DNA of 64,000 bases from a virus, in IMG/VR virus record IMGVR_UViG_3300028840_006156; one strand, given 5' to 3'. Below the pieces are notes generated by a model. It was not told the DNA's origin. It was given only the letters and a program-made list of their open reading frames with translations, and searched no databases. Shown in pieces: positions 15,668-57,949 of the stretch. A program made the position numbers and the translations under genes. Positions within the stretch are counted from its first letter, which is position 1; each line of letters opens with the position of its first letter.

Positions 15668-16828
15668 CTAGCTCAGCGCCGGCACGCGGATCACGGTTCC
15701 TCGCGGAACGGTCGGCGAGAAGAAGCCGTTGTACTCGCTGATCTCCGTCCACTGGCTCGGGTCGCCGTACTTCTCGCGCGCGATGTCTCGCAGCGACGTG
15801 AAGCTGTCCGCGAAGATCGTCGCCAGGATGTCCTCGGTCTGAAACAGCGCCGCGAGCCGCTGCTGGTCCCGCGCGAAGCTCGACAGTTCGATCAGCCGAT
15901 CGCGCAGCTGTTGCTGGACGAGGTTGGCGATCTGGACCGAGTCCGCGTCGCCGACCAGCGCGCGCTCGCCCGCGGCGCTCCGGTTGGTGTCGAACAGCGA
16001 GAGCAAGTCGAGGACCTGCGAGCGAACCTGCTCGAGCGCCCCGGTGATCGTGTTGATCAGGTCGAAGGGGGCCGTGGCGATCGAGACGATCTGCTGCAGC
16101 GCGTCGACGAGGCTCTCGACGGTCGAGCCCAGCTGAAGGATCGGCCCGATCACCTTCGTCGTGAACGCGTTGGGCTGCTTGAGCGCGGCGAGCTCGAGCA
16201 GGTTTTCGTTGATCGATGCGAGGATGTCGGCAAGGCCGTTGGCCGTCGTAAGGGCGTTGTACTTCGTCGCGCGCTTGACCGGCGAGAACTGCGTGAGGCC
16301 GGTCCAGGTGAACTCCATCTCCCACGCGATGTCGTTGATCCGGTCGAAGTCGGCCGAGTACCGCGTGATCCGGCCGTAGCGGACGTACTGGTCCCACGAG
16401 AACCGCAGCTGCTGCCCCTCGACCATCATCAACTCGACGGCCGCGTCGACGGTGCGCGCGAGCCGAGCCGGCTGCGTCCCTGGGAACACGTTGGACGACT
16501 GGAACACCGCGCCCGAGGCGATCGAGTTCTGCGACTGGGCGCCCGGGGAGACCTGCGGGTAGTTTACGAGCTCGACGCCGTTGTCCTCGTCGGCGCTGAG
16601 CAAAAACTTGTCGTGCCAGGCTCCGCGCAGCGTCGTCGGCTCGAGGCGGTTCCCGATCACCTGCTGGTTGGCGACGGGGTTGCCGGGCAGCCAGGTCGTG
16701 TTGACCTGCAAGATCCGCGAGAGCTGCAGCGGGCGAAACGGGAGCGCGCGGCCCTTGAAGAGGAGCACCCGGCGCGAGCCGGTCGTCTGCTCGAGCACGA
16801 CGGGGGACGCGAACTGCTGCTCAGCCAT
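15668..16828 (-). CDS. tail tube initiator/baseplate protein with C-terminal LysM (gpU+gpX-like)
   Basis: C-terminal SLRDIAREKYGDPSQWTEISEYNG...GTVIRVP is LysM-like; directly after tape measure. Confidence 0.8.
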   Translation of the reverse strand: MAEQQFASPVVLEQTTGSRRVLLFKGRALPFRPLQLSRILQVNTTWLPGNPVANQQVIGNRLEPTTLRGAWHDKFLLSADEDNGVELVNYPQVSPGAQSQNSIASGAVFQSSNVFPGTQPARLARTVDAAVELMMVEGQQLRFSWDQYVRYGRITRYSADFDRINDIAWEMEFTWTGLTQFSPVKRATKYNALTTANGLADILASINENLLELAALKQPNAFTTKVIGPILQLGSTVESLVDALQQIVSIATAPFDLINTITGALEQVRSQVLDLLSLFDTNRSAAGERALVGDADSVQIANLVQQQLRDRLIELSSFARDQQRLAALFQTEDILATIFADSFTSLRDIAREKYGDPSQWTEISEYNGFFSPTVPRGTVIRVPALS

Positions 16829-16830
16829 GC

Positions 16831-16858
16831 GGGAAGTGTACGCGGGGCTCGGCGGTAA
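16831..16858 (+). promoter_or_regulatory. GGGAAG-N17-GGTAA motif overlapping TACACT of gene 16828
   Basis: 8 nt before ATG 16867. Confidence 0.8.
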
Positions 16859-16866
16859 AACAGGCG

Positions 16867-17319
16867 ATGAGCATCGACTACAACGTCCACGTTGGGGCCT
16901 ACATTCGCGTCTGGACCACGGTCACCCGAACGGAGGTCGATCTGTGCGCTGACCACGAGCACGGTGGTGGTGCATTCTGCTCGGAGTGCGGACGCCCCTC
17001 GAAGCGCCGGATGAAGGCCGAGGAGACCCGGCCTGATGACGGGTACTACGAGGCTCACATGGACGAGCGGCTGTGCCCGTGGGACGTCGGCGACCTCTAC
17101 GACGAGGGCCGGCGGACCTACGTCATGGTCGAGAACGGCGTCGACACGACGGGTCTGCATATCGATCCGAAGTATGACGACAGCGCCGAGCAAGCGATGC
17201 CCGACGAGGCAACGTGCGAGGCGAACTTCAAGGAGCGCTACGCCAAGGAGATCGCGTGGCTCGTCGCGCACGACTGCGAGGTCGAGGTCCGCTTTGGCGT
17301 CCTCAGCTGGTCCTACTAG
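16867..17319 (+). CDS. zinc-ribbon hypothetical protein
   Basis: CADH...CSEC; antisense between TMP and LysM genes. Confidence 0.65.
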   Translation: MSIDYNVHVGAYIRVWTTVTRTEVDLCADHEHGGGAFCSECGRPSKRRMKAEETRPDDGYYEAHMDERLCPWDVGDLYDEGRRTYVMVENGVDTTGLHIDPKYDDSAEQAMPDEATCEANFKERYAKEIAWLVAHDCEVEVRFGVLSWSY

Positions 17320-19556
17320 GTCCCCTGCTCGATCGCGCCGTAGGCCTGGACGCGCCGGTCCGCGAGGCCGGCCGTCTTCTTGATGAACGCCGCGAACAGC
17401 CGGTCGGGGTCGGGGTCCGTCGTGTTGATCACGACCTCGACCTTGCCGATCTTCGTCCCGCCTGGAGCCCGCTTGTCCTTGTCCTTGTCCTTGCCCGCGA
17501 GCATGTCGGACAACGACTGCTGGAGGTCCTTCGCCTTCTTCTGGGCGGCAGCAAACTGCATCGGGGTGAGTTGCGCATCTCGCACTGCGTCAGCTGCCTT
17601 GTGGAACCTGTCCGCGGTCTTGAGGTTCGCGCTTGCTGCGCCGTAGGCCGAGTCGCGGATCCCGTCGATCGATGCGATCGCTCCGTCGAGTCCGTCGCCG
17701 ACCTTGGGGATCTTCGACATGACTCGAAGGCCGTCGCCGATCAGCTGGAGTAGCGCCGAGAAGGCGAGCCGGAACGCTCCGAAGGCCTCGATCCCGTAGG
17801 CCACGATGTCGATCATCCCGCCGAGGACCATCGACGCGAAGTCGACTGCGCCGGTGAGCATGTCGAGGCCGCTGACCATCACCGTCGCCGCGTCGGTGCC
17901 CCCGAACATGGCGACACCGACCAGGCGCAGTCGCTCGTAGAACGTGTAGAGCGACGTGATCAGCGGGAGCAGCGAGATCTTGCCCGACTCAATCGCACCG
18001 ACGAGCGACGCCTTGATCTCGTCCCACGATGTGGCGACGTAGGCCGCGAGGCCGCCGACGACCACGGCGACGCCGGAGAACGCGAGCGCGAGTCCGCCAG
18101 CGGCGACGCCGACGCCAGCGATCAGGGGGGCGAGCGTGGCGAACTTGAGGATCGTCTTGTCCATCCCTCGGAACAGCCGCAGGCCGCCCTTCCCCCCGCC
18201 GATCTTTCCGGTGATCCGTGACAGGCCTCGGCCGAGCATCCCGAGCCCGCCGCCGCCCTTCCGGCCACCCATGCCCCGACCGATCGCCATGTGTCGACGC
18301 CTGGCCATGGCGCCGAAGCCTTCACGTCCGCGCCTCATCCCTGCGCCGACGACCTGCGCAGCGGCCATGCCCTTGCCCGCGATGATCATGCCGTAGCCCG
18401 CGACGAGACGAGCGGTCGCCACGACGCTCGCTGCCTTGAGTGCAGCGCCCGCGAGCACGCCGGCCTCCTGGATCTTCGTCGCGATGTCGCGCCAGTGGGT
18501 GGCGACGTACCAGGCCCCGCGGTGTAGCCGGTCGAACAGCTTGTCGGCTGCCTTCGACAGCTGCTGACCCGCGAAGCTCGCGGCATTTTCCATCGTGTCC
18601 ATGCCGCCGCCGAAGGTGCTGATCCCGACCTTGCCGGTGGCACGGCTCATCGCGCGCTTGAGGCTGTCCATGAGCGGGGCAGCAAAGGCGCCGGCTAGCG
18701 TCATGCCCTCGGACTTCATCGTCGACGCGAGGCCACCGAAAGACTTGCCGAAGGCCGTTGCCGCCTCTTTCGAGACCCCATCGACCGCGACCTCGACGAT
18801 CTTGAGCGCCGTGTCGCCGCTTTGCTTCGCCAGCTTGTTGAACATCTGGGCGAAGTCAGCCTCGGTCTCCTTGCCGGTGACCTTCTTGAACGCTTCGCGG
18901 AGGTTGGGCTCGAGCTGCGAGAAAACAGCGACGTCAGCACCTGCGAGGCCACGTACGATCCGGCCGACGTCGGCGCCCATCTGCTTGTAGTCACCGCCGG
19001 TCGTGAACGCGAGCAGCGAGACCTTTTCCATCAGGTCGCGCTGGCGTTTCAGATCCTTGGTCACGCCGGTCACGCCGGGCGCCATCGCCGAGTAGGCCGT
19101 GGCGATGTCCTCGTAGGTTGCGGGCGACTTCTTGGCGATGTCGTAGAGCTCCGCCTGCATCCCCGCGGCGAGTTCGCTGGCCTTGGCGAACTCGGTCATC
19201 TGCCCGGTCATCACGGCCTGGGACTGACCGGCGACCCCGAACAGCTGGTACATCGTCGCCAGGCCGAGCCGGCCCTGCTCCATCTCGGAGTTGAAGCGGA
19301 CGCCCTCGCTAGCCGCCGCCGCGACGCCTCCGACGAGCGCACCGCCGGCCGCCATTGCGCCCATCCTCGCCCACTCGCGAGCAGTCTGGCCAAAGGTCCC
19401 CCGCACGCGCTCTCCCGCGGACACGAGCCGGCTCGACATCGACGCGTAGGACTTGCCGACGGTGTCCGCCGCGCGAGCCATGCCGATCGCCTCGCGCTGG
19501 AAGCTGCCCGCGGTCTTCAGGTTCGCGCGGACGTCGTAGGTGATCCCCTGCGGCAC
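17316..19556 (-). CDS. tail tape measure protein
   Basis: 746 aa Ala/Gly-rich helical protein; AKKSPATYEDIATAY TMP motif; follows chaperone genes. Confidence 0.9.
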   Translation of the reverse strand: MPQGITYDVRANLKTAGSFQREAIGMARAADTVGKSYASMSSRLVSAGERVRGTFGQTAREWARMGAMAAGGALVGGVAAAASEGVRFNSEMEQGRLGLATMYQLFGVAGQSQAVMTGQMTEFAKASELAAGMQAELYDIAKKSPATYEDIATAYSAMAPGVTGVTKDLKRQRDLMEKVSLLAFTTGGDYKQMGADVGRIVRGLAGADVAVFSQLEPNLREAFKKVTGKETEADFAQMFNKLAKQSGDTALKIVEVAVDGVSKEAATAFGKSFGGLASTMKSEGMTLAGAFAAPLMDSLKRAMSRATGKVGISTFGGGMDTMENAASFAGQQLSKAADKLFDRLHRGAWYVATHWRDIATKIQEAGVLAGAALKAASVVATARLVAGYGMIIAGKGMAAAQVVGAGMRRGREGFGAMARRRHMAIGRGMGGRKGGGGLGMLGRGLSRITGKIGGGKGGLRLFRGMDKTILKFATLAPLIAGVGVAAGGLALAFSGVAVVVGGLAAYVATSWDEIKASLVGAIESGKISLLPLITSLYTFYERLRLVGVAMFGGTDAATVMVSGLDMLTGAVDFASMVLGGMIDIVAYGIEAFGAFRLAFSALLQLIGDGLRVMSKIPKVGDGLDGAIASIDGIRDSAYGAASANLKTADRFHKAADAVRDAQLTPMQFAAAQKKAKDLQQSLSDMLAGKDKDKDKRAPGGTKIGKVEVVINTTDPDPDRLFAAFIKKTAGLADRRVQAYGAIEQGT

Positions 19557-26280: not shown

Positions 26281-26308
26281 CTACCGCGCGCCCCCGCGTC
26301 AGCTTCCC
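26281..26308 (-). promoter_or_regulatory. GGGAAG-N17-GGTAG promoter motif
   Basis: Exact spacing. Confidence 0.8.
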
Positions 26309-27159
26309 GCGACCGTAGCCTCGACGTCGAACTGGAAGCCGTCGACCACGCCGGGGATCGTCACGAGCTCGACCACGGGCGCCTCGGCGAGGATGCTGAC
26401 CTCGAGCACCCACTCGTTCACGCGCGCGCCCTCAGCGTTGTCCGGCCGCGTCGTGTCCTGCAGCTGGTAGCGGATCGACCGCGAGAAGTACTCCGGCACG
26501 ACCACGTGCCGGGCGCCGATGTCCTGCCGCGGCTCGCCCGCGAGCGCGTTGATGATCCGCGAGGCGAACCCCCTGCGCTGGTCCTTGTGCGCGAACCACA
26601 CGACGACCGCGAGCGGGATCTCCTGGACGCCCATGTAGCGCAGCACCGTCCCCTCCATGAACCGGTCCTGGGTCTCCTCGAGCAGCCGAGGCGTGAAGCC
26701 AGCGACGTCGAAAGGCGCGGGATCGGGTCCGGTGATCAGCGCCGTCTGAGCCGGCATCGACTCCTTCTGCTGGCCGTCGGGCCAGTCGAGGTGGATCTTC
26801 GTCAAGCGGTGCGGCTCGCGGCTCGTGCTGATCGTCTTCCCGAGCTCGGCGAGGATCTGTAGGTCGAAGCTGCGCCACCGCATCGCGTCGAGGATCCGGT
26901 AGAGGCCGAGCATGGCCGCGTCCTTCGGGGCCATGGTGACGACCGCGGCGCCGTCGGGCGGGAACGACTTGGTCTGCTGAGCGGGGAGGATCTCGCCGTA
27001 GCCCGAGATCCCGACGAGTGACCGGGTCCCGTCGGGGTTCGCGATGATCTCGACCGTGTACGCCTCTTCGGGCGGGACCCCTGCCGGGCGCGGTGGGACG
27101 CCGATCGTCGGGACGTCTGGGCGGATCGAGTCGGGGTCGAAGGTGCGCTTGATCTGCAC
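26299..27159 (-). CDS. putative tail completion/terminator protein
   Basis: Position upstream of sheath; TACGCT-N6-GTG. Confidence 0.6.
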   Translation of the reverse strand: MQIKRTFDPDSIRPDVPTIGVPPRPAGVPPEEAYTVEIIANPDGTRSLVGISGYGEILPAQQTKSFPPDGAAVVTMAPKDAAMLGLYRILDAMRWRSFDLQILAELGKTISTSREPHRLTKIHLDWPDGQQKESMPAQTALITGPDPAPFDVAGFTPRLLEETQDRFMEGTVLRYMGVQEIPLAVVVWFAHKDQRRGFASRIINALAGEPRQDIGARHVVVPEYFSRSIRYQLQDTTRPDNAEGARVNEWVLEVSILAEAPVVELVTIPGVVDGFQFDVEATVAGS

Positions 27160-27161
27160 CC

Positions 27162-27189
27162 GGGAAGCGTACACGGGCGGCGGCGGTAG
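27162..27189 (+). promoter_or_regulatory. GGGAAG-N17-GGTAG motif followed by a ~100-nt leader
   Basis: Overlaps TACGCT of gene 27159. Confidence 0.75.
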
Positions 27190-27196
27190 AGTTGGG

Positions 27197-27299
27197 CGAC
27201 ACCAAGCAACACAGACCCGGAGGTGAGCCATGCGACCGTAGACATGAACCCGGAGCCCCGCACGCAGCCGTAAGGCCGAGCGCCGGGGCTTTCGGGGTG
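27197..27299 (+). promoter_or_regulatory. structured 5' leader with two uORFs (MRP*, MNPEPRTQP*)
   Basis: GGAGGTG-N4-ATG at 27230; AGCCCCG (27254-60) pairs with CGGGGCT (27284-90); inner GCC-GTAA-GGC hairpin. Confidence 0.45.
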
Positions 27300-27749
27300 A
27301 TGGACCCCGAGACCAAGCGACTCCTCGAAGAAGCTCTACGGACGATGGTGGCGCCTCGTCCGGTGGCGCCCGTTGTCCGCGAGTTCACCGCGTTCGAGCG
27401 CGCCGTCGAAGAGGCCGGCCGGAAGTTCTACGAGCAAGCCAAGGACGGCCGGGGCTACCAGTTCGTGCGCGACGACGGCTCGAAGATCGGTCCGCCGTTC
27501 ATCGTGTCGAAGCCCACCCCGCCGATCTGCGAGCGCAGCGGAAACCCGAGCGGGACGGACACCTGGAGCCTCGGCCACCCGTGCCCGTGCAAGCCATGCA
27601 CGACCTACTGCGCGCTGCTCGACGACGGCGTGCCGTTCATCGTCAACGCGAGCGCGCTCCCGGGCACCTACCGCGAGCCGCTGACCTACGTCGGCCCCGT
27701 GCGCTCGGGCAGCCTGCGCGAGTTCGAGGACGAGGAGTCAGGACGATGA
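27300..27749 (+). CDS. hypothetical protein with Cys motif (CPCKPC)
   Basis: Start MDPETKRLL after GGGGTG. Confidence 0.6.
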   Translation: MDPETKRLLEEALRTMVAPRPVAPVVREFTAFERAVEEAGRKFYEQAKDGRGYQFVRDDGSKIGPPFIVSKPTPPICERSGNPSGTDTWSLGHPCPCKPCTTYCALLDDGVPFIVNASALPGTYREPLTYVGPVRSGSLREFEDEESGR

Positions 27750-28195: not shown

Positions 28196-28296
28196 GCCAC
28201 CGGGTCTGGTTCGTTCTGACACTGCTCGTGGCTTCCGCGGTCGCAGCCCTCGCGTGCGTGCTGACCCTCGAAGTGATCGCCTACCTCACTTCTTGA
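28192..28296 (+). CDS. single-TM peptide (34 aa)
   Basis: VWFVLTLLVASAVAALACVLTLEVIAY; GTGA overlap. Confidence 0.5.
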   Translation: MSHRVWFVLTLLVASAVAALACVLTLEVIAYLTS

Positions 28297-28789
28297 CCCG
28301 CGCCGCCCGTTCAAACGCCCGCGACATCGCGGCGTCCATTTCGAAGGGGATCCGCTTCGCCATGAGCGGGACCGTTCGCCGGAGGATGAAGCGGCCCTTG
28401 AACCCGACGCGGCCGATCTTGCGCTGGACCGCGAGCGCGACCCGCTTGGCCTTCGAACCGCGAGCGATCTTCTTCAACTCGACCCAGCGGATCAGCGGCG
28501 CGAGCGGTGGCCGCTTGCCGGGCTTGCGGCCGACCTCGACGAAGATCGCGTGCTTCGCCGAGTTGGTCACCGCGGCGCCGTCAGGGAGCTTGACCACCAT
28601 CCACCCACGCGCGTAGGTGCCCGAGGCTCGAGGGCGGGGCCGCGTCTGCGCCGTCGTCTTGCGGACCATGGTCACGCCGTAGCGGGCGGTCCGGCGAAGG
28701 GCTGTCACCGTGGCCTTGTCCATCTCGCGGGAGAGCTTGCGCAGGGCGGGGCCGAGTTGCTTCGGGGAGGAGAGGCGGACGGTGGTCAT
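28286..28789 (-). CDS. neck/tail completion protein (HK97 gp10-like)
   Basis: ASGTYARGW...NSAKHAIFVEVGRKPG...KG.FIL pattern. Confidence 0.8.
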   Translation of the reverse strand: MTTVRLSSPKQLGPALRKLSREMDKATVTALRRTARYGVTMVRKTTAQTRPRPRASGTYARGWMVVKLPDGAAVTNSAKHAIFVEVGRKPGKRPPLAPLIRWVELKKIARGSKAKRVALAVQRKIGRVGFKGRFILRRTVPLMAKRIPFEMDAAMSRAFERAARVKK

Positions 28790-28791
28790 GC

Positions 28792-28819
28792 GGGAAGTCT
28801 ACGCGGGTGCGGGCGGTAG
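28792..28819 (+). promoter_or_regulatory. GGGAAG-N17-GGTAG motif overlapping TAGACT of gene 28789
   Basis: 7 nt before ATG 28827. Confidence 0.8.
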
Positions 28820-28826
28820 AGCAGGC

Positions 28827-29785: not shown

Positions 29786-29788
29786 GGC

Positions 29789-29816
29789 GGGAAGCGTACC
29801 GCGGGCGCGCGGGTAG
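29789..29816 (+). promoter_or_regulatory. GGGAAG-N17-GGTAG motif overlapping TACGCT of gene 29785
   Basis: 7 nt before ATG 29824. Confidence 0.8.
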
Positions 29817-29823
29817 AGTAGGC

Positions 29824-31773: not shown

Positions 31774-31790
31774 GCCCCGAGCCTACCAGA

Positions 31791-31874: not shown

Positions 31875-31888
31875 GCGGAGGCTACACG

Positions 31889-47056: not shown

Positions 47057-47313
47057 AGTCATTCGAGAAGTCATTGAAGCGCAAGCCGCGGGACGTCGTG
47101 AACCGGGCGCGGAAGATCGTCGAGAGAATCCGCGACGGCGCCAAGGCCCACGAGGTCGGGGCGAAGCGGATGAACCACGCCCGGGATCGGCTCTCAGTCG
47201 CGATCGGACGCTCGTGGCGCCTGGTCCTGCGCGAGGTCGATGGCGTGCTCGAACCCCTCGCGCTCATGAGCCACGAGACCTACAACGGGACCAAGCCGGC
47301 GTCGAAGCGATGA
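47053..47313 (+). CDS. ParE/RelE-superfamily toxin-like protein
   Basis: RLSVAIGRSWRLV...LMSHETYN motif. Confidence 0.6.
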   Translation: MKSFEKSLKRKPRDVVNRARKIVERIRDGAKAHEVGAKRMNHARDRLSVAIGRSWRLVLREVDGVLEPLALMSHETYNGTKPASKR

Positions 47314-48011
47314 CGCCCGACCCACCGTCGGACTGACGCCCGCGCGAGACCCAGTGCCCACGCCCGCCGCTCCTCCGTCGACTGTCGACGGCCAAGATCC
47401 CGCTCGGTGACGGGGGCCCAGCAGCTGTGGCCGTAGCCGCTGAGCCGCTCGCAGAACCGGCGACGCTTCGCCGCGGGCAACGTGAAGGAGCAGTCGCCCG
47501 AGCGGCACTCGACGAACCCGCCGTAGACTGCCTGGACCTCGACGAGGTTGCGAGCGCCGTAGCGGGTCACCGCCCGCCACACGATCTCGTGGGCGATCGC
47601 GGTCGAGACCTCGGGCGTGCACAAGGCGGGCTCGAGGTCGCTGCCGTCCCACTTGTTGCCGTGCCAGCGAAGCGAGAGGCCGTAGGCGCCCAGGCCATCC
47701 TCGACGCCGCGCACGTCCTCGCCGCGGGTGTGCCGGACGCTCGCCTCGCCGCAGAAGCTCTCGCGGCAGATCACGAGCCGATGGAAGGCGCGGATGATCG
47801 GCGCGACGCGCAGGTCGGACAGGGCGACGTCGACGCGCTCCTGGGTCCGGCGCTTCTGGTCCCGAGACCACGCCACGCGCTCGCTACGGTCGTTGCAGTA
47901 GTCTCCGGGGACCAAGCCGCCGATGACGCCGGCGGACGCTGGACGGGCCCACAGAAGCGCGAGGACAGTGAGGATGGCGAGGGTGATGCGGAGCATGATC
48001 CGGTCGTCCAT
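47280..48011 (-). CDS. signal-peptide lysozyme-fold (transglycosylase-like) protein, candidate endolysin
   Basis: N-terminal MLRITLAILTVLALLWARPASA; VICRES and GAYGL resemble SLT catalytic motifs; Cys-rich. Confidence 0.55.
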   Translation of the reverse strand: MDDRIMLRITLAILTVLALLWARPASAGVIGGLVPGDYCNDRSERVAWSRDQKRRTQERVDVALSDLRVAPIIRAFHRLVICRESFCGEASVRHTRGEDVRGVEDGLGAYGLSLRWHGNKWDGSDLEPALCTPEVSTAIAHEIVWRAVTRYGARNLVEVQAVYGGFVECRSGDCSFTLPAAKRRRFCERLSGYGHSCWAPVTERDLGRRQSTEERRAWALGLARASVRRWVGRHRFDAGLVPL

Positions 48012-48031
48012 GGGTCGGGCAGCGTAGCACC

Positions 48032-48059
48032 GGGAAGCGGGCAGTTGCGTGCGGGGTAG
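48032..48059 (+). promoter_or_regulatory. GGGAAG-N17-GGTAG promoter motif
   Basis: 8 nt before ATG 48068. Confidence 0.8.
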
Positions 48060-48067
48060 GGACTGGC

Positions 48068-48313
48068 ATGCCCGAGCTGAAGCCCCACACCGTGTCGCTG
48101 ACGATCGCGCGATGCAAAGACTGCCCGAACCTGCACGTAGGGCGGCTGTACTCCCTCGACGGCTTTGACCGGGGGTGCGACTGGACCTGCACCGCGGCGA
48201 ACAACCGCGCGGTCGCGTCGTTCGTCGAGTGGCCGCGAGATGAACCCAAGACGATCCCGAGGTGGTGCCCGCTGCGCTCGAAGCCGAGCGAGGAGACCAG
48301 CGATGACCGATGA
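48068..48313 (+). CDS. Cys-rich phage protein (C..CP...IP.WCPL family)
   Basis: CKDCP...C..C...IPRWCPL. Confidence 0.65.
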   Translation: MPELKPHTVSLTIARCKDCPNLHVGRLYSLDGFDRGCDWTCTAANNRAVASFVEWPRDEPKTIPRWCPLRSKPSEETSDDR

Positions 48314-48698
48314 CCTGCCCACGATCCGCCTCGCCTGTGAGGGCGATGAGCACGCCCACCGCGCCGCGTGCATCCTGGAGGCCGTCGGCTACACGGTCGT
48401 CCGCGACATCGCGGGCCTCGATACGATCGCCGACCGGGCGCGGGCCATCGGCGAGAAGTTCAAGCTGACCACGCGCGAGCAGGACGTCTTCGACGGCGTG
48501 ATCCGGGGCCGGTCCAACGAGCAGATCGCCCGCGAACTCGACATCAGCCGCGCGACGGTGAAGTGGCACATGCACAACGTGCTTTCCAAGACCAACACCG
48601 GGACGCGCGAGCAAATGCTACGGCTCGCCCTGTTGGGAACCGCCGGCGAGACGGTCGATCCCGATCCTGCCCAGGATTGGCCGTCGAAATGCTACTGA
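48303..48698 (+). CDS. LuxR-family HTH regulator
   Basis: LTTREQDV...GRSNEQIARELDISRATVKWHMHNVLSK. Confidence 0.9.
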   Translation: MTDDLPTIRLACEGDEHAHRAACILEAVGYTVVRDIAGLDTIADRARAIGEKFKLTTREQDVFDGVIRGRSNEQIARELDISRATVKWHMHNVLSKTNTGTREQMLRLALLGTAGETVDPDPAQDWPSKCY

Positions 48699-49138
48699 TT
48701 GACCGAGCCCGAGCGCTCCTCGCACTGCGATCGATCGCCGACTCCGAGATGACCGACGAGCGTGGCGACATCGAGCACGCGCTACACGAGGTCTGCCACG
48801 CGGTGGTGTTGGGGATCGCCGCGCCGGGCCCAGATGACCTGTCGTTCGTCGTCGGACGGAAAATCCAAGCGATGCAGACCCGCAGCCATGCTCGCGCGGA
48901 CTGGCAGGAGATTATGGTAGTCGCCGCGGAGCTTCGCGCGACCGAGCTCCTCGGCGGCTTGCCGGGCGGAGGCCGGCACCTGACGATCTCCGACGTGCTC
49001 GGTGGCAACACCAACTCGATCCCGCGAGAAGAGGCCGAGGCGCACGTCCAGCGGCTGCTCGGGTGCGAGACGACGTACCGACGAGCGCGGGCGGCGTTGT
49101 GTTGGGCGATAGCGAGCGCACCCGAGCAGGTGCGGTAG
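48689..49138 (+). CDS. HExxH zincin-like metallopeptidase
   Basis: HALHEVCHAVV and downstream QEIMVVAAE. Confidence 0.55.
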   Translation: MLLIDRARALLALRSIADSEMTDERGDIEHALHEVCHAVVLGIAAPGPDDLSFVVGRKIQAMQTRSHARADWQEIMVVAAELRATELLGGLPGGGRHLTISDVLGGNTNSIPREEAEAHVQRLLGCETTYRRARAALCWAIASAPEQVR

Positions 49139-49147
49139 ACTCGGAGC

Positions 49148-49705
49148 GTGAAGGCCGAGACCACGCTCTTCCCCTACGGCGGCGCCGAGGGTCTCCCCGT
49201 GCTTCGCCTCGACGCTGAGGGTCAACCCTGGTCCGACGAGGCCGCCGCGCTGGCCCTCGCGCGAGCTCGGCCGCCGGGCCTGTTCGCCGCGTGGATCACG
49301 GGCGTCGCTGACTGGCACGCGCGCGACTTCATGACCTGGGTGACGCGCACGCCGGACCTCGGCCTGCCGCTGATCTCGCTGCGCGACCTCGACGCCCAGC
49401 GTTGGATCGGCGGCGTCGCCAACGTCCTCGACGCGAGCGCGGCGATGCAGTGCTCCGGGCCCGACGAGCTCGCCGACTTCCTCGCCGCGCGCGCTCACTC
49501 GGTGCCCGAGATCGAGGACCTGGTCGTGCGTGTCGGACCGGACACCCGAGCTCCGAGCGCGAGTGTGCTCGAGGTCCTCGCCGAGTTCTGTCAGCCGCAG
49601 GACCAGGGCTACGTCTACGCGCCGCGCGACCACAAGCACTGGGCGCTGCTCGAGCGCGTCGTCGCCATGACGTCGAGCATGTGGGCGCTGCGGGGGTCGG
49701 GCTAG
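49148..49705 (+). CDS. hypothetical protein
   Basis: GGTAG-N8-GTG upstream with degenerate -35. Confidence 0.55.
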   Translation: MKAETTLFPYGGAEGLPVLRLDAEGQPWSDEAAALALARARPPGLFAAWITGVADWHARDFMTWVTRTPDLGLPLISLRDLDAQRWIGGVANVLDASAAMQCSGPDELADFLAARAHSVPEIEDLVVRVGPDTRAPSASVLEVLAEFCQPQDQGYVYAPRDHKHWALLERVVAMTSSMWALRGSG

Positions 49706-50076: not shown

Positions 50077-50120
50077 GCGAGCACACTACCGCAACCGCGC
50101 AGGTGCGGTACGATCCAGCC

Positions 50121-50801
50121 GTGACCCGCAAGCCGCCGCGCCCGTCCGACGAGGACCACGCCCGCGCGCTGTCGCTCTACCGCGCCAACGCGAGCGTCGA
50201 GTCGATCGTCGAGCGGACCGGCCTCAGCGAGGAGCAGGTCGACCGAGCGATCTACGAGGGTTGGCCGCCGAGCCGAGGCAAGAACCCCCGCGGACCGCTC
50301 CGAGCCTTCGAGCACGAGATCCAGGACCGGCTGCACCGGCTGGAGCTCGCGCGACTCGACTGGGCGCAGGCTGTCGTCGAAGCCGCAGCCGTCCACGCCA
50401 AGGACTGGGCGGCGGCCGTCAAGAAGGGCGCCGCGATCAAGCAGGCGATCCTCAGCGCGTGGGGGGCGAAGGTCCAGAACGCGATGCAGGACGCGAGCGT
50501 CGCCGGCAAGATCGACGCGTCGAAGATCGACCTCGCCGACTTCGCGATCCCGATCGACCTGGTCCGAAGCCTTCGCGCGCTGTCCGTGGCCATGGACCCG
50601 GCGCAGCAGGCGAAGATCGCAGACGTCTACCGGTTCCTCCGCGGCGTCGATGACGACGAGGACGGCGTCGGCGAGTTGGAACGCGTCCAGGCGGCCCTCG
50701 GCGAGATGACCGACGAGCAGCTCGAGCACTACGTCGAGACCGGCGAGCGGCCGAGCCCCGAGCAGAAGGTCATCGACTTTCCGCAGCAGGGGTCAGGCTA
50801 G
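50121..50801 (+). CDS. terminase small subunit
   Basis: N-terminal HTH; upstream of TerL; TACGAT-N6-GTG. Confidence 0.7.
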   Translation: MTRKPPRPSDEDHARALSLYRANASVESIVERTGLSEEQVDRAIYEGWPPSRGKNPRGPLRAFEHEIQDRLHRLELARLDWAQAVVEAAAVHAKDWAAAVKKGAAIKQAILSAWGAKVQNAMQDASVAGKIDASKIDLADFAIPIDLVRSLRALSVAMDPAQQAKIADVYRFLRGVDDDEDGVGELERVQAALGEMTDEQLEHYVETGERPSPEQKVIDFPQQGSG

Positions 50802-51067
50802 GTCTTCGGGTCGCGGACGTACTTCGTGACGGTGACCTGTTTGGCGATCACGGGATAGGCCGCGGTCGCGTAGCTGTGCATCTCGTTGGAGTTCCACTCC
50901 AGCGCCCAGAGCGACCCGTCATCGCGCCGGACGATCGCGCGCTCGCAGGCGTAGGACCTGCGGGTCCCTGTCGTCTCCTGATCGATGCACGCGTCGCCGT
51001 AGCTGAGTTGCTCCAACTCGGCGATCAACTCGTCAGGGTGCTCTGTATCGTTCTCGTCGAACTCCAT
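50798..51067 (-). CDS. acidic hypothetical protein
   Basis: ATG 7 nt after motif 51075-51102; sits between terS and terL. Confidence 0.6.
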   Translation of the reverse strand: MEFDENDTEHPDELIAELEQLSYGDACIDQETTGTRRSYACERAIVRRDDGSLWALEWNSNEMHSYATAAYPVIAKQVTVTKYVRDPKT

Positions 51068-51074
51068 GTCCGAC

Positions 51075-51102
51075 ATACCGCCCGCAACCCCGATCGCTTC
51101 CC
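51075..51102 (-). promoter_or_regulatory. GGGAAG-N17-GGTAT promoter motif
   Basis: Exact spacing. Confidence 0.75.
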
Positions 51103-51135
51103 GACGCACCCGCGCGGGTGCGCTACGATCGCGGC

Positions 51136-52686
51136 ATGTTCGCCCCGGCCAAGCGCAAGAAGGCAAAGCGCCGCCGACGGATCCCGGCGAAGGCGACGAG
51201 GCGCTGGCACGTCGAGTTGGAGGAGGCCCGGCGCGACCCGATCGTCTTCATCGAGTACGTGTTCGGGATCAAGCTCGATGACGTCCAGAAGTCCTGGGTC
51301 CGCTTCTGGATGCGCCACCGGAAGACGGTCCTGCACGGGTCGATCGGGCTGGGCAAGTCGCTGCTCATGCGCGGCATGGCGTTGTGGTTCATGGGCCGTG
51401 ATCCCGGCGTCCAGATCATCTGGCTGTCGGCGACGCAGCGCCAGCCGAAGAAGCACCTGAGCCTGATCGCCACCCTGATCGAGTCCGACGGCGCCCGGTC
51501 TCGACTTCATCACGTGTTCCCGCGGCTCAAGCCCGGCAACACCTGGCGGTCGACCGAGCTCACCGTGGCGCGCGAGGTCGACCCGCTCGAGGCCGACTAC
51601 ACGGTCTCGGTCTACGGCGCCTACTCGGACTCGCTGCTCGGCTCGCGCGCCACGATCCTGATCGTCGACGACCTGTGCAACTTCTCGAACACGCTCACCG
51701 AGGACGGCCGATCGAAGATGATCGAGTGGCTGGCGACGGTCCTCTCGCGCCTGACCACGCCCGACTACCGGATGATGGTGATCGGGAACTTCTGGCACAA
51801 GCAGGACGCGACGATGGACCTGCATCGCGCGAAGGGGTTCGAGTACATGAAGACCCCGGCGTTCGTCCGCGACGAGGCCGGCGAGATGATCCCGACGGCG
51901 CCGGCGGCCATGCCGGTCCCGACGATCATCGAGAAGATCAAGGAGCTCGGACCGCGCCGCGCGAAGCAGATGCTCGAGTGCGAGGCGGCGGACACGAACC
52001 TCGGCCGGTTCAAGGACATCTACTTCGCGCGCGCCCTCGAGCTTGGCCGCAGGCTGCCCTTCAGGCCCAAGCGCGAGTACGAGCCCTGCTTCACCGGGAT
52101 CGACCTCGGGTCGGGCAAGGCGCCCGGGTCGGACCGGACGGCGATGGTCACGGTCAAGCTCCGCGCCGACGGCAAGCGCCAGGTCGTCGACGTCCGGTCT
52201 GGGTGCTGGGGCAGCGACGAGATCAAGCGGAACCTCCGCGAGGTGAAGCGCCGCTACAACACGACGATCGCCGTCGAGAACAACGGGATCCAGAAGCTCG
52301 TGATCGACTTCTTGCGCGAGGCTACGGTGATCCCGCTCAAGGACCACAACACCAACGCGGTCAACAAGCGGGACATGGCCTACGGCGTCGAGGGCCTGGC
52401 CACTGAGATGTCCGAGGGCCTGTGGGTGTTCCCATGCGGCGACGCGGCCACCTTCGACCCTCGGTCCGGCATGACCGAAGACGAGGACAGCGAGCCCCAC
52501 GAGGAGCTACAGGCGATGATCGGCGAGGCGCTGACCTTCGACCCGACCAAGCCCCGCGAGCATACGGGCGACCGGCTCATGGCCTGGTGGATCTGCGTCA
52601 GCGTCATGTGGAAGTCGGCGCTGTTCGAGCTCGACGAGATGGAACTCGACCTCGACGCGCCGACCCACAACATCTTTGACCGCTAG
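51136..52686 (+). CDS. terL: terminase large subunit
   Basis: GSIGLGKS Walker A, ILIVDD Walker B, GIDLG...SDRTA and VENNG nuclease motifs. Confidence 0.92.
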   Translation: MFAPAKRKKAKRRRRIPAKATRRWHVELEEARRDPIVFIEYVFGIKLDDVQKSWVRFWMRHRKTVLHGSIGLGKSLLMRGMALWFMGRDPGVQIIWLSATQRQPKKHLSLIATLIESDGARSRLHHVFPRLKPGNTWRSTELTVAREVDPLEADYTVSVYGAYSDSLLGSRATILIVDDLCNFSNTLTEDGRSKMIEWLATVLSRLTTPDYRMMVIGNFWHKQDATMDLHRAKGFEYMKTPAFVRDEAGEMIPTAPAAMPVPTIIEKIKELGPRRAKQMLECEAADTNLGRFKDIYFARALELGRRLPFRPKREYEPCFTGIDLGSGKAPGSDRTAMVTVKLRADGKRQVVDVRSGCWGSDEIKRNLREVKRRYNTTIAVENNGIQKLVIDFLREATVIPLKDHNTNAVNKRDMAYGVEGLATEMSEGLWVFPCGDAATFDPRSGMTEDEDSEPHEELQAMIGEALTFDPTKPREHTGDRLMAWWICVSVMWKSALFELDEMELDLDAPTHNIFDR

Positions 52687-53870: not shown

Positions 53871-55925
53871 GTGCCCGAGGAGCAGACGAACACCAGCCTG
53901 AACCGGCTGCGCGTGCTTCACCTCGAAGACACGCCCCGCGCGAAGCTCCTCAAGCAGCGGTGGCTCTACTACACCTGCCAGCAAAACGACGGCATGGCCG
54001 TCGACTTCGACGGGTACGAGCACACGCCGGGCTTGAGCTACCTCGGCCAGCGCATGCGCGGGGTCGGATTCGTCCCGGCCAACAACGCGTCGATCCCCTT
54101 CGGCCAGAAGCGGCCGATCTGCCACAGCCTCAGCGTCGGGCATATCGTCGACACCTACACGGCGCTGCTGCTCGGCGAGGGCCGCCAGCCGGCTGTCCGC
54201 GTCGTCGGTGACCCGGCCTCGACCGAGTTGCTCGGCGCCCTGCTCAAGTACTGCGGGGCCTGGTCCGCCTTCGCCGAGGCTCGCAAGATCGGCGGAGCGA
54301 CGGGGGCGTCCGCGGTCCTCCCGGAGATCTGCAAAGGCAAGATGTCCCTGCGTGCGCTCCGGCCGGAGAACCTCTACGTCGAGTGGTCCGACGAGGCCGA
54401 CTGGATCCCGACGCTCGTGATCGAGCAGAAGCGGGTCCGGGTCGAGAAGCTCGACGAGGCCACCGGCCGCGTCGCCACCGTCGAGGTCTGGCGCACTCGA
54501 GCATGGGACGAGACCTATGCCTACGCCATCCACGACAAGGTCATTCAGTCCGACGACGGCAAGGCCGAGACCGAGGGCGTCGAGACCCCAGACGACCGGA
54601 TCGAGCTCAGCGAGCAACCCACGCCCCACGGCGCGGGCCGCTGCCCGGTCGTCTGGATCCAGAACACGACCGACAGCGACAACCCGGTCGGCGAGCCCGA
54701 CTGCGAGGCCGTCTTCGAGGCCGTCGACCAACTCGACCGGTCCCAGTCGATGCTCGTCCGAGGGTCGCGCGCCAACACGGACCCGACGCTGCTGGTGAAG
54801 GACAAGCCGATGATGCTTCGGCGCTGGCCGAACAACCGCAAGGGCTACGGGGCGAAGCTCGAGGTCAGCGAGGTCGGCGACGCGAAGCTCCTCGAGATCT
54901 CGGGCAACTCGATCAAGACGGCGTGGGAGACCGTCGTCGCGATCGGTCGGCAGATCGAGCGACGCACCGGCGTGATCCAGCCAGACCCCGAGAACTCGGG
55001 TGCCTACCAGTCCGGCGTCGCGCTGCAGCTGCTGTGGAACACGCAGCACTCGCGCGCGGCGGAGCGACGCACCCCGCTCGGGGTCGGCCTCAAGCAGGCG
55101 TTCGCGGTCATGCTCACCCAGCTTCGCCTGTTCGGCCTGCGCGAGATCGGGTCCAACGGCGAGGGCGTCGAGGTGCCGCCGCGCGAGGTCCGGGCCGAGG
55201 AGAGCGACGACATGACGCTCGAGCCTCACGAGATCGGGCCCGGTGGCGCGCTCGTCCTCGACTGGCCGGGCTTCCACCAGGCGACGCCACAGGACCTCCA
55301 GACGACCGCGACAGCCCTGAGCACCGCGACGGGCGGCCTGCCGTCGATGAGCCAGGAGACCGCGGTCGCCCACATGACCAAGCTCGCCCAGACCGACACG
55401 GACGTCGCCGAGGAGATGGACCGGATCAGCGGCGAGCGCGACGCCAAGGAGGCCGGCTTCTTCGAGGCCATGCGGCCGGACGTCGACACGGATGCGGAGC
55501 TCGCGGATCTCGAAGGCCAGGCAGGCGAGGCCCCTCAGACCGAAGGCACGGAACAAGTGCAGCACGAAGCCATGAACGGGATCCAGGTGAAGACCTTCGG
55601 CGATGTCCTCGCCCGAGTCGGCAAGGATCTGACTCCCGAGGCCGCCCGCCTCACGATCAACGAGGGATTCCCGAACACGCGCGAGCCCGCGCGAGCCGCC
55701 GAACTCGAGCGCGCGATCGATGCCCAACTCGAAGAGGCTGCGCAAGACGAAAAGAAGGGCGAGACGATCTCCAGCGGTCAGCGGTTCGACGCCCTGGGCC
55801 GACCGATCACGCGCGGAAGCTCGAAGTCAAAGGACGTGCCCGAGTCACGCGAGCGCGAGGAGACCGGCGAGCAAGGCGAGGGCGAGCCCGAGCAGGACCT
55901 CGACGACGAGCAGCTGGATCCGTAG
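53871..55925 (+). CDS. portal protein with acidic C-terminal extension
   Basis: SPP1 gp6-like features (CPVVWIQN...GEPDCE, SGVALQLLW); follows TerL; TAGCCT-N6-GTG. Confidence 0.88.
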   Translation: MPEEQTNTSLNRLRVLHLEDTPRAKLLKQRWLYYTCQQNDGMAVDFDGYEHTPGLSYLGQRMRGVGFVPANNASIPFGQKRPICHSLSVGHIVDTYTALLLGEGRQPAVRVVGDPASTELLGALLKYCGAWSAFAEARKIGGATGASAVLPEICKGKMSLRALRPENLYVEWSDEADWIPTLVIEQKRVRVEKLDEATGRVATVEVWRTRAWDETYAYAIHDKVIQSDDGKAETEGVETPDDRIELSEQPTPHGAGRCPVVWIQNTTDSDNPVGEPDCEAVFEAVDQLDRSQSMLVRGSRANTDPTLLVKDKPMMLRRWPNNRKGYGAKLEVSEVGDAKLLEISGNSIKTAWETVVAIGRQIERRTGVIQPDPENSGAYQSGVALQLLWNTQHSRAAERRTPLGVGLKQAFAVMLTQLRLFGLREIGSNGEGVEVPPREVRAEESDDMTLEPHEIGPGGALVLDWPGFHQATPQDLQTTATALSTATGGLPSMSQETAVAHMTKLAQTDTDVAEEMDRISGERDAKEAGFFEAMRPDVDTDAELADLEGQAGEAPQTEGTEQVQHEAMNGIQVKTFGDVLARVGKDLTPEAARLTINEGFPNTREPARAAELERAIDAQLEEAAQDEKKGETISSGQRFDALGRPITRGSSKSKDVPESREREETGEQGEGEPEQDLDDEQLDP

Positions 55926-56049: not shown

Positions 56050-56214
56050 TCGCCACGATCCACTCCCGGGGCCCCATGGGCTTGTTGGCCGTGGTCGATC
56101 TGGCAGTGGTCCGGCGGGGGCGAGTACGCCTACGCGTGGCCGGGGCTGCCGTCGCCGATCGACCGCAACCGCTACCGCGGGTCGGTGGCCGAGTTCGCCG
56201 GGCTGCTGGGCTAG
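56050..56214 (+). pseudogene. C-terminal remnant of a GH25 muramidase
   Basis: Manual translation PWACWPWSIWQWSGGGEYAYAWPGLPSPIDRNRYRGSVAEFAGLLG*, no in-frame ATG; upstream stop at 56047. Confidence 0.65.
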
Positions 56215-57026
56215 ACCGGGACGATGTCGCAGCGAAAGCCGGCCGCGTGCTCGTGTCCGCCACCGCCAAACTCGCGGGCGATCTCAGAGACGTCGGGCCC
56301 ATCGTCGCGAGACCGGAGCGAGCAGTAGAAGTCACCGGCCTCGCCATCCCACGACCATCCAAGGACCGGCAGGTGTGGCTCGCGCTTCTTCAGAACCTCA
56401 GCAGTCTCACTGACGAACTCGACCGGGACGTTGACTGCCCACACGCGATGGCCGCCCAGGCTGACGACCTTGGCGCGGGTGGCAAACTTACTCGCGCAAA
56501 GCTGCGTGAACCGAAGGACGGCCTGACCCTCGGCGGCAAGTTCGAGGACTGGTCGAGACGCCAAGTACTGCCAGCACTCAAACATCATCGGCATCGCGGT
56601 CATGGCCGCGTGCACCGCCTTCGTGTGCTCCAGCTTGAACCGCCACAGATCGCGGTCCTCGACGTGGCTGACGATCGGCGGCCGGGGCTGCCCAGGGTAG
56701 ATCGTGTCCCACGTGAGGCCCGCGCCCGATCGATCCATGTCGAATACGGCGAAGTCTAGGCCAGCAAGATCTTCCGCAGCGGTCTTGTGATGGTCGAGTA
56801 CGAGCAGCGAAGCCGCCGACTCGTTCATGGCGATGAGCACGTCTCGCGGGTAGCTGAAGTCGCAGATCAGAACGCGCGCTCCGTCCACGTCGGGCGGCAC
56901 GTCTCCGTACTTCGCGGGGACAAACCGCGCGTCCGGGCTGTCCATCTTGGCTACCCACGCGGCCGTGAACCCGTCGTAGCAGTTGGCGTGATAGATGACG
57001 ACGTCGAAGGCGCGCGGGATCTCCAT
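56211..57026 (-). CDS. DHH/DHHA1 phosphoesterase (NrnB-like)
   Basis: YHANCYDG, ICDFS, LDHH, EDRDLW, YCSLRS, GGGGHEHAAG. Confidence 0.9.
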   Translation of the reverse strand: MEIPRAFDVVIYHANCYDGFTAAWVAKMDSPDARFVPAKYGDVPPDVDGARVLICDFSYPRDVLIAMNESAASLLVLDHHKTAAEDLAGLDFAVFDMDRSGAGLTWDTIYPGQPRPPIVSHVEDRDLWRFKLEHTKAVHAAMTAMPMMFECWQYLASRPVLELAAEGQAVLRFTQLCASKFATRAKVVSLGGHRVWAVNVPVEFVSETAEVLKKREPHLPVLGWSWDGEAGDFYCSLRSRDDGPDVSEIAREFGGGGHEHAAGFRCDIVPV

Positions 57027-57034
57027 GCCCACGA

Positions 57035-57062
57035 CTACCGCCGAGCCCCGCGTACACTTCCC
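57035..57062 (-). promoter_or_regulatory. GGGAAG-N17-GGTAG motif overlapping TACACT of gene 57065
   Basis: 28-bp inverted copy of 16830-16857. Confidence 0.8.
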
Positions 57063-57064
57063 GG

Positions 57065-57949
57065 GTGACCGCCGACCTCGCCGCCGACTTGGCGATCGCC
57101 CAGCGAGCCCGCTACGACAAGCTGTGGGCGACACTCGAGCGACGCGAGCGAAAGCTCGTCGACGAGGCGCTCGCGGAGATCGAGCAGAATCTCAAGCGCG
57201 CGCGGCCGGGCAGCTGGTCAGCGGCCTCATCTGCGTCGACCCTGGTCCAGCTCGCGCAGGCGGTGCGTGGGCTGTCGAGCGCCCAGCTGACCCTGCTTCG
57301 GCGCGCCCTCCCGGGCGTCGCCAAGAAGGCGCAGGCCGACGCAGCTGCGTGGCTCCGCGAGCTCGACGCGAGCTTCCTCGGTGCAGCCCGGCCGCTTCGC
57401 TTCGACTCGCTCGAGTGGCTGCGGGGCTACAGCCGTCCGCTGCTCCGGTCTCGCCTCCGCGTCTATGAGCAGTCCTTCGCCCGCTACGGGGCCAAGACGG
57501 TGAGCGCGATCGAGGACGCGATCGCCAAGAACATGATCATCGGCACGCCGTGGGCCGAGGCGCGCGAGGAGGTCTACGACCTCGTGCGCGAGCAGGTCGG
57601 CGGCAAGCAGTGGATGGTGGACCGGATCGTCAGGACCGAGGTCAGCGCGGTGCACAACGCCACGACGATGGCCGCGCTACTCGAAGAAGACGCGGCCGAC
57701 GACCCGATGCTGAAGAAGCTCGTCGCGACCTTCGACCCGGTGACCGGCCAGGACTCGCGGCTTCTTCACGGCCAGACCCGGCGGCTCGACGAGTTGTTCA
57801 CCGACGTCACGACCGGCCGCAAGTTCGACGCGCCGCCCAACCGGCCCAACGACCGCGAGATCGTCGTCGGCTGGCGGCGCAGCTGGGGCGATGACCGGGG
57901 GTTCGACCGGGACACGGCCGAGGAGCACGAAGCCGCGTCGAGTGGCTAG
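57065..57949 (+). CDS. minor head morphogenesis protein (Mu gpF/SPP1 gp7-like)
   Basis: DRIVRTEVSAVHN...KKLVATFD..T...HGQ...PPNRPNDR. Confidence 0.85.
   Translation: MTADLAADLAIAQRARYDKLWATLERRERKLVDEALAEIEQNLKRARPGSWSAASSASTLVQLAQAVRGLSSAQLTLLRRALPGVAKKAQADAAAWLRELDASFLGAARPLRFDSLEWLRGYSRPLLRSRLRVYEQSFARYGAKTVSAIEDAIAKNMIIGTPWAEAREEVYDLVREQVGGKQWMVDRIVRTEVSAVHNATTMAALLEEDAADDPMLKKLVATFDPVTGQDSRLLHGQTRRLDELFTDVTTGRKFDAPPNRPNDREIVVGWRRSWGDDRGFDRDTAEEHEAASSG

Follow-up and report, generated by a model that had tools for sequence, protein, structure and literature searches.

The window analysed here, which is the whole 64,000-nucleotide stretch of virus record IMGVR_UViG_3300028840_006156 (IMG/VR), is a portion of an uncultured phage of about 84 kb, with a guanine plus cytosine (GC) content of 68% and a contractile-tail-type baseplate. 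Within it, five pairs of divergent genes share an interlocked pair of predicted promoters: the -35 box of an extracytoplasmic function (ECF)-type promoter (class A, GGGAAG-N18-GTA), reading towards an antisense accessory gene, lies on the end of the -10 hexamer of a -10-only promoter (class V, TANNCT-N6-start) reading the other way, into a virion gene. We interpret the arrangement, with moderate confidence, as a compact and reusable two-way promoter cassette that accompanies the insertion of antisense accessory genes and whose cargo has been exchanged; regulation arising from the overlap would probably be a by-product.

An overlap of TANNCT-TCCCG-start with an opposing GGGAAG had been proposed, from the sequence, at 16829, 27160, 28790, 29786 and 57057, and it was found at all five. 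The corresponding pattern, TANNCTTCCCG, gave 5 matches where 0.15 were expected (no shuffled sequence gave more than 1), at 16830-16840 (-), 27161-27171 (-), 28791-28801 (-), 29788-29798 (-) and 57053-57063 (+). Each match sits in a gap of 37-38 bp between two divergent genes, with no room for a leader, and the reverse complement of each CTTCCC is the GGGAAG of a GGGAAG-N18-GTA site on the opposite strand. The divergent start codon, seen as CAT or CAC on the class A strand, is 2 nucleotides (nt) before GGGAAG, or 3 nt at 29786, and the starts are 38-39 nt apart (16828/16867; 28789/28827, 38 nt; 29785/29824; 57026/57065). The cassettes, with protein lengths in amino acids (aa), are:

16826-16869, cassette 1: CAT 16826-16828, start of a 386-aa virion-module gene (15668-16828, minus strand); GGGAAG 16831-16836; TACACT 16835-16840 (minus strand); GGTA 16854-16857; ATG 16867 of a 150-aa cargo gene (plus strand).
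27157-27194, cassette 2: CAC 27157-27159, the GTG start of a 286-aa gene (26299-27159, minus strand); GGGAAG 27162-27167; TACGCT 27166-27171 (minus strand); GGTAGAG 27185-27191.
28787-28829, cassette 3: CAT 28787-28789, start of the tail-completion/Neck1 gene (28286-28789, minus strand); GGGAAG 28792-28797; TAGACT 28796-28801 (minus strand); GGTAGAG 28815-28821; ATG 28827 of a 110-aa cargo gene.
29783-29826, cassette 4: CAT 29783-29785, start of a 226-aa gene (29105-29785, minus strand); GGGAAG 29789-29794; GGTAGAG 29812-29818; ATG 29824 of a 185-aa cargo gene.
57024-57067, cassette 5, in mirror orientation: ATG 57024-57026 of a DHH-type phosphoesterase gene (56211-57026, minus strand) on the class A side; GGTAG 57035-57039 (minus strand); TACACT 57053-57058; CTTCCC 57057-57062; GTG 57065 of the MuF-like gene (57065-57949, plus strand) on the class V side.

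The earlier division of the genes into two classes was also borne out, with virion genes (MuF-like at 57065, tail-completion at 28286-28789, portal, terminase) in one and accessory and replication genes in the other, and the predicted physical overlap is real: in class V coordinates GGGAAG occupies -8 to -3, covering the end of the -10 hexamer and most of the 6 nt ahead of the start codon, and in class A coordinates the divergent start falls at -38. The hexamer of cassette 4 (TACGCT) lies 7 nt before its ATG, owing to the 3-nt gap at that site. On its class A side cassette 2 lacks a start codon where one would normally stand, and about 100 nt separate it from the first supported plus-strand open reading frame (~27297); in this segment (27185-27300) GAC stands where relatives have ATG or GTG, so either the start codon has been lost or a leader is present. 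Cassettes 1 and 5 agree in all of the 27 nt that run from GGGAAG through GGTA, which indicates that copying between sites happens.

Class A sites number 26 in the window against 0.15 expected, are spread throughout it, and with the start codon included have the consensus GGGAAG-N18-GTA-N8-ATG. Of 27 sites, 26 have a spacer of exactly 18 nt; the spacers are all GC-rich and alike, and an ATG or GTG follows GTA by 8-9 nt at all sites but a few. The genes behind these sites are replication, recombination and small accessory genes. By a loose pattern (a purine-rich core of 4-5 nt placed 4-10 nt ahead of the start), only 1 of 36 genes with either motif has a Shine-Dalgarno-like match, versus 27 of 63 other genes, which are mostly internal cistrons; because motif-bearing genes almost never have such a match, both classes look like promoters of leaderless mRNAs. 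In M. tuberculosis, SigH promoters have a rigid spacer and an essential T-9, their boxes being GGAAYA (-34 to -29) and GTT (-11 to -9) (PMC6411747), and SigH/SigE promoters of C. glutamicum read GGAAT/C-N18-19-GTT (PMC10012870). When class A is laid on the SigH frame, the predicted +1 is the A of the ATG. Class A thus resembles the SigH/SigE/SigR-type promoters of Actinobacteria in both boxes, in rigid spacing and in distance to +1 (PMC6411747, PMC10012870), and differs from the SigH/SigE type in having G rather than T/C at -30 and A rather than T at -9, with GGAA and GT retained. It also differs from the actinobacterial systems in that the sigma is phage-borne and each site is fused to a start codon, which would yield a leaderless mRNA. 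In design class A is close to the ECF promoters of the SigH/SigE type, and it may be one of them. The candidate sigma factor is encoded at the right end of the window:

63343-63876, minus strand: ECF-type sigma, 178 aa from the second ATG (63876), with Pfam domains Sigma70_r2 and Sigma70_r4_2.

The second ATG, the likely start, agrees with the public gene call. The protein (178-181 aa) matches Sigma70_r2 (4.4e-18) and Sigma70_r4_2 (3.9e-4) with no Pfam match to r3 or r1, and its small size and possession of regions 2 and 4 only are those of an ECF (group 4) sigma, a class of about 170-220 aa; its top matches in PDB are all ECF sigmas, M. tuberculosis SigH first (2e-12), SigE also among them. 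No anti-sigma was identified for it. The sigma gene is itself preceded by TAGGAT-N7-ATG, which is a -10-only and not a class A arrangement. A word-indexed homologue search returned just the sigma itself, and orthologues were compared in two genomes, a relative (G002; 97% complete, 81.6 kb) and a distant relative (C1083). In G002 the orthologue is 38% identical over residues 11-171, with both regions alignable; its gene has the same TAGGAT-N7-ATG, and GGGAAG-N18-GTA sites like those of the window are present. In C1083 the sigma aligns in region 2 only (46%), its gene is preceded by TTGACA-N18-CATCAT, and there are no GGGAAG-N18-GTA sites; instead GGAAT-N17-19-GTT is fused to start codons at 8 sites versus 0.68 expected. 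Examples at 3499, 10572, 19689 and 27555 (L135+L136, from the metagenome-assembled genome [MAG] G001) read GGAAT(G/C)-N17-18-GTT-N8-9-ATG, a canonical SigH-like promoter. The 8.1-Mb MAG containing C1083 has no GGGAAG-N18-GTAG. The match in G002, the mismatch in C1083 and the lack of class A in the MAG link class A with the phage sigma rather than with a factor of the host, and this covariation of sigma and promoter makes the phage's own ECF sigma the most likely reader of class A.

For class V, 19 strict sites (TANNCT-N6-(A/G)TG) occur in the window versus 1.63 expected, and relaxed hexamers precede about 23 genes, including portal, terminase, MuF-like, neck and all large left-arm genes. Alignment of 23 class V upstream regions showed conservation of T-15, T-12, A-11, C-8 and T-7 only, with T-12, A-11 and T-7 invariant (n=23); no -35 box was seen in these regions, and 13 of the 23 have a TG extension, (TG)nTAnnCT. 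The sites have the sequence traits of leaderless -10-only promoters, a TANNNT ending 6-7 nt before the start codon and no Shine-Dalgarno sequence. In mycobacteria, leaderless -10-only promoters place TANNNT about 6-7 nt before the start codon. Leaderless mycobacterial transcripts are the subject of two papers (PMC3898074, PMC4633059). Class V is like these in having TA and a final T at -12, -11 and -7 (taking the start codon as +1) and no -35 box, and unlike them in its density in the phage (about 1 per 3 kb), in the strong C at hexamer position 5, and in that the host may not be an actinobacterium. The likeliest reader of class V, in our view, is the holoenzyme with the host's primary sigma, and class V would drive the virion and packaging genes. 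A reading of the hexamer as a translational signal between coupled genes (several sites are TGA-TAnnCT, where TGA is the upstream stop) was rejected, because T-12, A-11, T-7 and the fixed 6-nt distance are traits of a -10 element and because the hexamer is also found after divergent genes, where there is no upstream cistron. Three consecutive genes of the packaging region share a longer motif, GTGCGnTA(G/C)(A/G)(C/A)T-N6-start (49136-49150, 50109-50123, 51124-51138), and the terminase, the gene at 50121 and the sigma gene have TAsGAT in place of TAnnCT, maybe a sub-class of class V. A scan of 13-32.5 kb with the sigma-70 consensus gave 0 promoter-like sites and TTGACA-N17-TANNNT-like sites in the window were below chance; an immediate-early class was therefore not found in the window.

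We examined if the class V half of the cassettes could be a fortuitous sequence, with class A as the sole promoter at the five sites, TAnnCT unused, and the virion genes dependent on read-through that begins at late promoters further upstream and crosses the antisense gene. The absence of a TG extension from the interlocked hexamers would fit this. Among 54 strict class A sites from the window and from relatives L126, L124, L139, L140 and L141, however, TA at spacer positions 3-4 was present at 12, each of which has a CAT or CAC of a divergent gene 2-3 nt ahead of its -35; TA was present in 0 of the 40 sites without a divergent start codon, and two sites with a chance CAT/CAC lack it (Fisher p = 2.7e-10). 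In addition, the distance from hexamer to start is 6 nt, as at 19 other sites, and the genes in question lack the Shine-Dalgarno sequence that internal cistrons of this phage commonly have. Expression by read-through alone is accordingly quite improbable.

The interlock recurs in relatives at corresponding positions. Site 1 is interlocked in the window, in L126 (flanking protein 74% identical), in L124 (52%) and in G002/L139; site 2 in the window, G002/L139, L140 and L141, with the relatives' start codon at the canonical distance; site 3 in the window, G002/L139 and L140; and site 5 in the window and G002 (60612). Sites 1, 2, 3 and 5 are thus interlocked in G002 though the flanking proteins are about 50% identical; the site 4 junction (29786) is without an antisense gene there, and the junction at 10838, abutting in the window, is interlocked in G002 (17016). 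A further relative, available as a gene map only, has 38-nt divergent gaps at sites 1 and 2. Between genomes GGGAAG, TA, GTA and both start codons are kept and the free spacer bases differ. The antisense genes themselves are unrelated between genomes at site 1 (150, 136, 113 and 26 aa) and at site 3 (110 aa; a 105-aa membrane-like protein; a 286-aa DNA methylase), and those at site 2 have only a tail of about 25 aa in common. In the L122 and L125 clades the virion genes follow one another directly, one with a GGAGG ribosome-binding site, and there is neither antisense gene nor overlap. From the turnover of cargo, the L122 and L125 clades and the 10838 junction we conclude that the cassette is stable, its cargo exchangeable, and the overlap dispensable for the virion gene. 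A collection-wide pattern (GGGAAG-NN-TAC-N14-GGTAG) was too loose, giving 120 single unrelated matches, and was discarded.

Such recurrence could also be a neutral relic, in which recombination spread copies of a single ancestral cassette and the overlap is of no selective value. The identical 27-nt core in cassettes 1 and 5 is what this would produce, as is the site 1 cassette of L126, which carries downstream a -10 region like that of site 5 in the window, and the GC-rich, uniform class A spacers agree with it too. Against it, at about 50% identity of the flanking proteins the spacer varies while GGGAAG, TA, GTA and both starts stay, and the distant C1083 clade has one interlock that is built on its own, different promoter background (TATCTTCCCCGCATG). 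We regard a neutral relic as very improbable; on the sequence comparisons, the overlap is selected or inherited and not a product of chance.

Close back-to-back pairs had been listed in the original prediction at 4731-4775, 10838-10878, 48012-48059 and 51068-51135. The pairs are real, but in them the elements lie next to each other without overlap, with 6, 1, 5 and 21 nt, respectively, between CTTCCC and TAnnnT.

4728-4788, abutting pair: class V TACCCT-N6-GTG for gene 3840-4730 (minus strand); class A GGGAAG 4749-4754 (plus strand).
10835-10888, abutting pair: class V TAGACT-N6-ATG for gene 9920-10837 (minus strand); GGGAAG 10851-10856, leading to ATG 10886.
48009-48070, abutting pair: TACGCT 9 nt before the ATG of gene 47280-48011 (minus strand); GGGAAG 48032-48037, leading to ATG 48068.
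51065-51138, divergent pair: GGGAAG 51097-51102 (minus strand), leading to ATG 51067; TACGAT 51124-51129, leading to the terminase ATG 51136.

The operon that begins at ATG 48068 includes a LuxR/GerE-type gene (48303-48698, plus strand; a 131-aa helix-turn-helix protein), which, with its class A promoter at 48032, immediately precedes the packaging block of class V genes (49148, 50121, 51136); its product is a candidate late-gene regulator.

In 26 close divergent pairs of class V and class A, drawn from six sequences, the gap from the divergent start to GGGAAG is 2-3 nt in 15, 13-40 nt in 11 and 4-12 nt in 0. Gaps of 4-12 nt are impossible, since the hexamer requires T, A and a final T and GGGAAG contains no T. 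Overlap is possible only with the last CT of the hexamer on the AG of GGGAAG, so the interlock is the tightest packing of both motifs and the only overlap register that the two permit; a class A site becomes an interlock once its free spacer carries TA and a start codon stands 2 nt ahead of it. Other two-way layouts occur. Two class A -35 boxes form a perfect palindrome, GCTTCCCGGGAAGC, at 15648-15663 and 59746-59761 of the window; at 59748/59754 both arms reach start codons (59718, minus; 59789, plus), and at 15650/15656 the minus arm only. The palindrome is also present in relatives (L124, ~5690-5710; L126, ~3125-3140; G002, ~2100-2165 and 63920-63985) and represents a second kind of two-way cassette, made from two class A promoters. 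Three virion genes of G002 (8590-8998, 9283-10441, 12891-13446) have an identical abutting cassette, CTTCCC-GCGTGG-TA(G/A)CCT-N6-start, which is further evidence of cassettes copied as units.

The mechanism we propose for the two-way cassette is as follows. Each of the five places has an antisense accessory gene between virion genes, with both predicted promoters held in one 38-bp gap. The AG of GGGAAG serves as the CT of the opposite TAnnCT, its GGGA lies opposite bases 1-4 of the 6 nt that precede the virion gene's start, and TA at positions 3-4 of the otherwise free ECF spacer completes the hexamer, so that only two additional bases are needed. The cassette is inherited as a unit, and probably also copied as one, with its antisense cargo swapped; with such a module an antisense accessory gene could be lodged in a virion operon and the virion gene that follows would still be served by its own promoter. 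Competition between polymerases would be a likely side effect, felt only when one side is heavily used.

From the motifs and their geometry we infer that both promoters fire, which holoenzyme reads each, and that the two are not occupied at once. A primary-sigma holoenzyme melts DNA from about -11 to +2, and the polymerase footprint runs from about -55 to +20. Two holoenzymes could therefore not use one cassette at the same time, because their footprints cover the same DNA, the distance between the start sites is 39 bp and the -35 of the ECF promoter falls in the region melted by the other. The mutually exclusive occupancy by RNA polymerase that had been predicted thus follows from the geometry, the -35 being needed as a duplex where the opposite promoter would melt it.

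The further suggestion of an early/late toggle is unsupported. By this account the ECF holoenzyme at GGGAAG, together with antisense transcription from class A, would hold the virion promoters off, and the same DNA would fire in the opposite direction once the sigma falls or a host-sigma holoenzyme takes over. Several observations favour it: co-occupancy is precluded by the geometry (39 bp; -35 at -8 to -3); the overlap is kept at four orthologous positions; and the cargo genes converge on the upstream virion genes with no room for a terminator (e.g., 16867-17319 versus 17316-19556). Intrinsic-terminator-like hairpins, for their part, numbered 8 versus 6.5 expected, not above chance, with no enrichment after antisense genes. 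Should unmodified host RNA polymerase read the -10-only promoter of the sigma gene, early restraint might be needed for virion promoters of that type. In E. coli, the two directions of a bidirectional promoter compete only when one of them is strongly activated, and that direction then represses the other (PMC12825309). Opposed to this, only 5 of the ~24 class V promoters in the window are interlocked, and no class A site overlaps the promoters of portal, terminase or the largest tail genes, so the overlap is not a general timing device for virion genes; the layout at the 10838 junction varies, being abutting in the window and interlocked in G002; and distant relatives, such as the L122 and L125 clades, would express the same virion genes with no antisense unit and no overlap. 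Nor can "-10-only" simply mean "late", because the sigma gene itself lies behind TAGGAT-N7-ATG, if unmodified host polymerase reads it; class A can fire only after the sigma has been produced. We judge a temporal toggle unlikely, with some real weight left to it. A related possibility is a sigma-competition switch, in which the phage-ECF and host-sigma holoenzymes would contend in opposite orientations for one piece of DNA, and the neck gene, the MuF-like gene and two tail-module genes would be licensed when the phage sigma drops, with no repressor or activator involved; this too we would call unlikely.

Several points weigh against the two-way cassette with incidental regulation. The conserved overlap is equally consistent with a selected regulatory coupling, and the 27-nt core common to cassettes 1 and 5 represents recent copying, so that the five sites of this genome do not count as separate events. 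With no TG extension, the class V hexamers of the interlocks may be weak, and a phage factor or an unrecognised late sigma could be required for class V. The hint of a host is only the binning of C1083 in an Enhygromyxa MAG, where TANNCT-N6-ATG is modestly enriched, 1.8-fold over control (120 versus 67; at a distance of 9 nt, 93 versus 74).

The window has a GC content of 68% throughout. Proteins identical to those it encodes are found on metagenomic contigs of up to 84 kb, and its DNA was matched in two marine DNA metagenomes, one of sediment and one of seawater, possibly its source; no RNA run was among the matches. A nucleotide search against cultured phage genomes gave chance-level fragments only, terminase and sigma protein searches against cultured phages gave remote matches only, a single-protein locus search among viral contigs gave zero matches, and an alignment-based search of viral contigs gave one relative. 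Virion-module genes run leftward in 1-32 kb; in 32-64 kb replication genes, then packaging and head genes, run rightward, and opposite-strand small genes are dispersed across both arms. The assigned genes include:

28286-28789, minus strand: tail-completion/Neck1 protein.
48303-48698, plus strand: LuxR/GerE-type protein.
51136-52686, plus strand: terminase large subunit.
53871-55925, plus strand: SPP1-type portal.
56211-57026, minus strand: DHH phosphoesterase.
57065-57949, plus strand: MuF-like head protein.

The start of the terminase is better assigned to ATG 51136, which is preceded by TACGAT-N6. The window also encodes Baseplate J and gp25-like proteins, a DnaB helicase, an SF2 helicase, RecT and an exonuclease. 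The two arms diverge from a 238-bp gap (31774-32011) with a strong GC hairpin and T-run at 31894-31914 (minus strand) and other hairpins; the sole recognisable promoter in the gap is a class A site at 31977. A 232-aa protein cut by the window end (1-701, minus strand) matches Pfam Cas_VVA1548 (putative CRISPR-associated; 3.7e-08), one predicted protein matches a ParE-like toxin domain (PF24732, 2.5e-19), and another matches DUF6283. Judged by predicted promoter placement, nearly all transcription units of the phage would be leaderless.

Overlapping divergent promoters are known, and those described pair elements of the same class by symmetry or need DNA-binding regulators. In phi29 the A2b/A2c-A3 promoters form the textbook early/late divergent switch, with mutually exclusive use controlled by p4 and p6. 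The phi29 promoters are like the cassettes in being closely spaced divergent phage promoters, there early versus late, and unlike them in using one host sigma and DNA-binding proteins at a single locus; the cassettes have two predicted sigma specificities, direct overlap, many copies and no known regulator. Promoter early stem-loop (PeSL) cassettes of T4-type phages are promoter-bearing repeats that border exchangeable accessory genes in conserved modules, and are one-directional with a terminator hairpin. The cassettes resemble PeSLs as short promoter repeats at the borders of accessory genes, cassette recombination being suggested here by cargo replacement and by the 27-nt core, and differ from the one-way, hairpin-bearing PeSLs in being two-way. 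Bacterial bidirectional promoters have starts 7-25 bp apart (mostly 18) and symmetric -10 elements of one sigma-70 class (Warman et al., bioRxiv 10.1101/2020.01.31.928960; PMC12825309). Like these promoters, which are common before divergent genes, the cassettes are short DNA that would engage polymerase both ways, one binding excluding the other; unlike them, the cassettes have predicted starts 38-39 bp apart, belong to two classes, and have -10 elements that do not overlap and are about 20 bp apart, it being the ECF -35 that overlaps, in the other promoter, the end of the -10 and the bases leading up to the start. Our search of the literature turned up no account of an ECF-type -35 that overlaps in this way, repeatedly and with conservation, a divergent leaderless promoter of the -10-only kind.

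The distinctive feature here is a predicted ECF-type and a predicted -10-only promoter that share bases in a fixed register, five times per genome, and that are kept so in a family of uncultured phages with proteins only about 50% identical. The cassette offers a minimal natural 38-bp template for competition between holoenzymes with different sigmas, and a compact two-output part for synthetic biology. For the phage itself, it suggests how antisense accessory genes could enter a late operon with the virion gene beyond them still served, in a lineage in which, as predicted, almost every gene block would be leaderless and have its own promoter.

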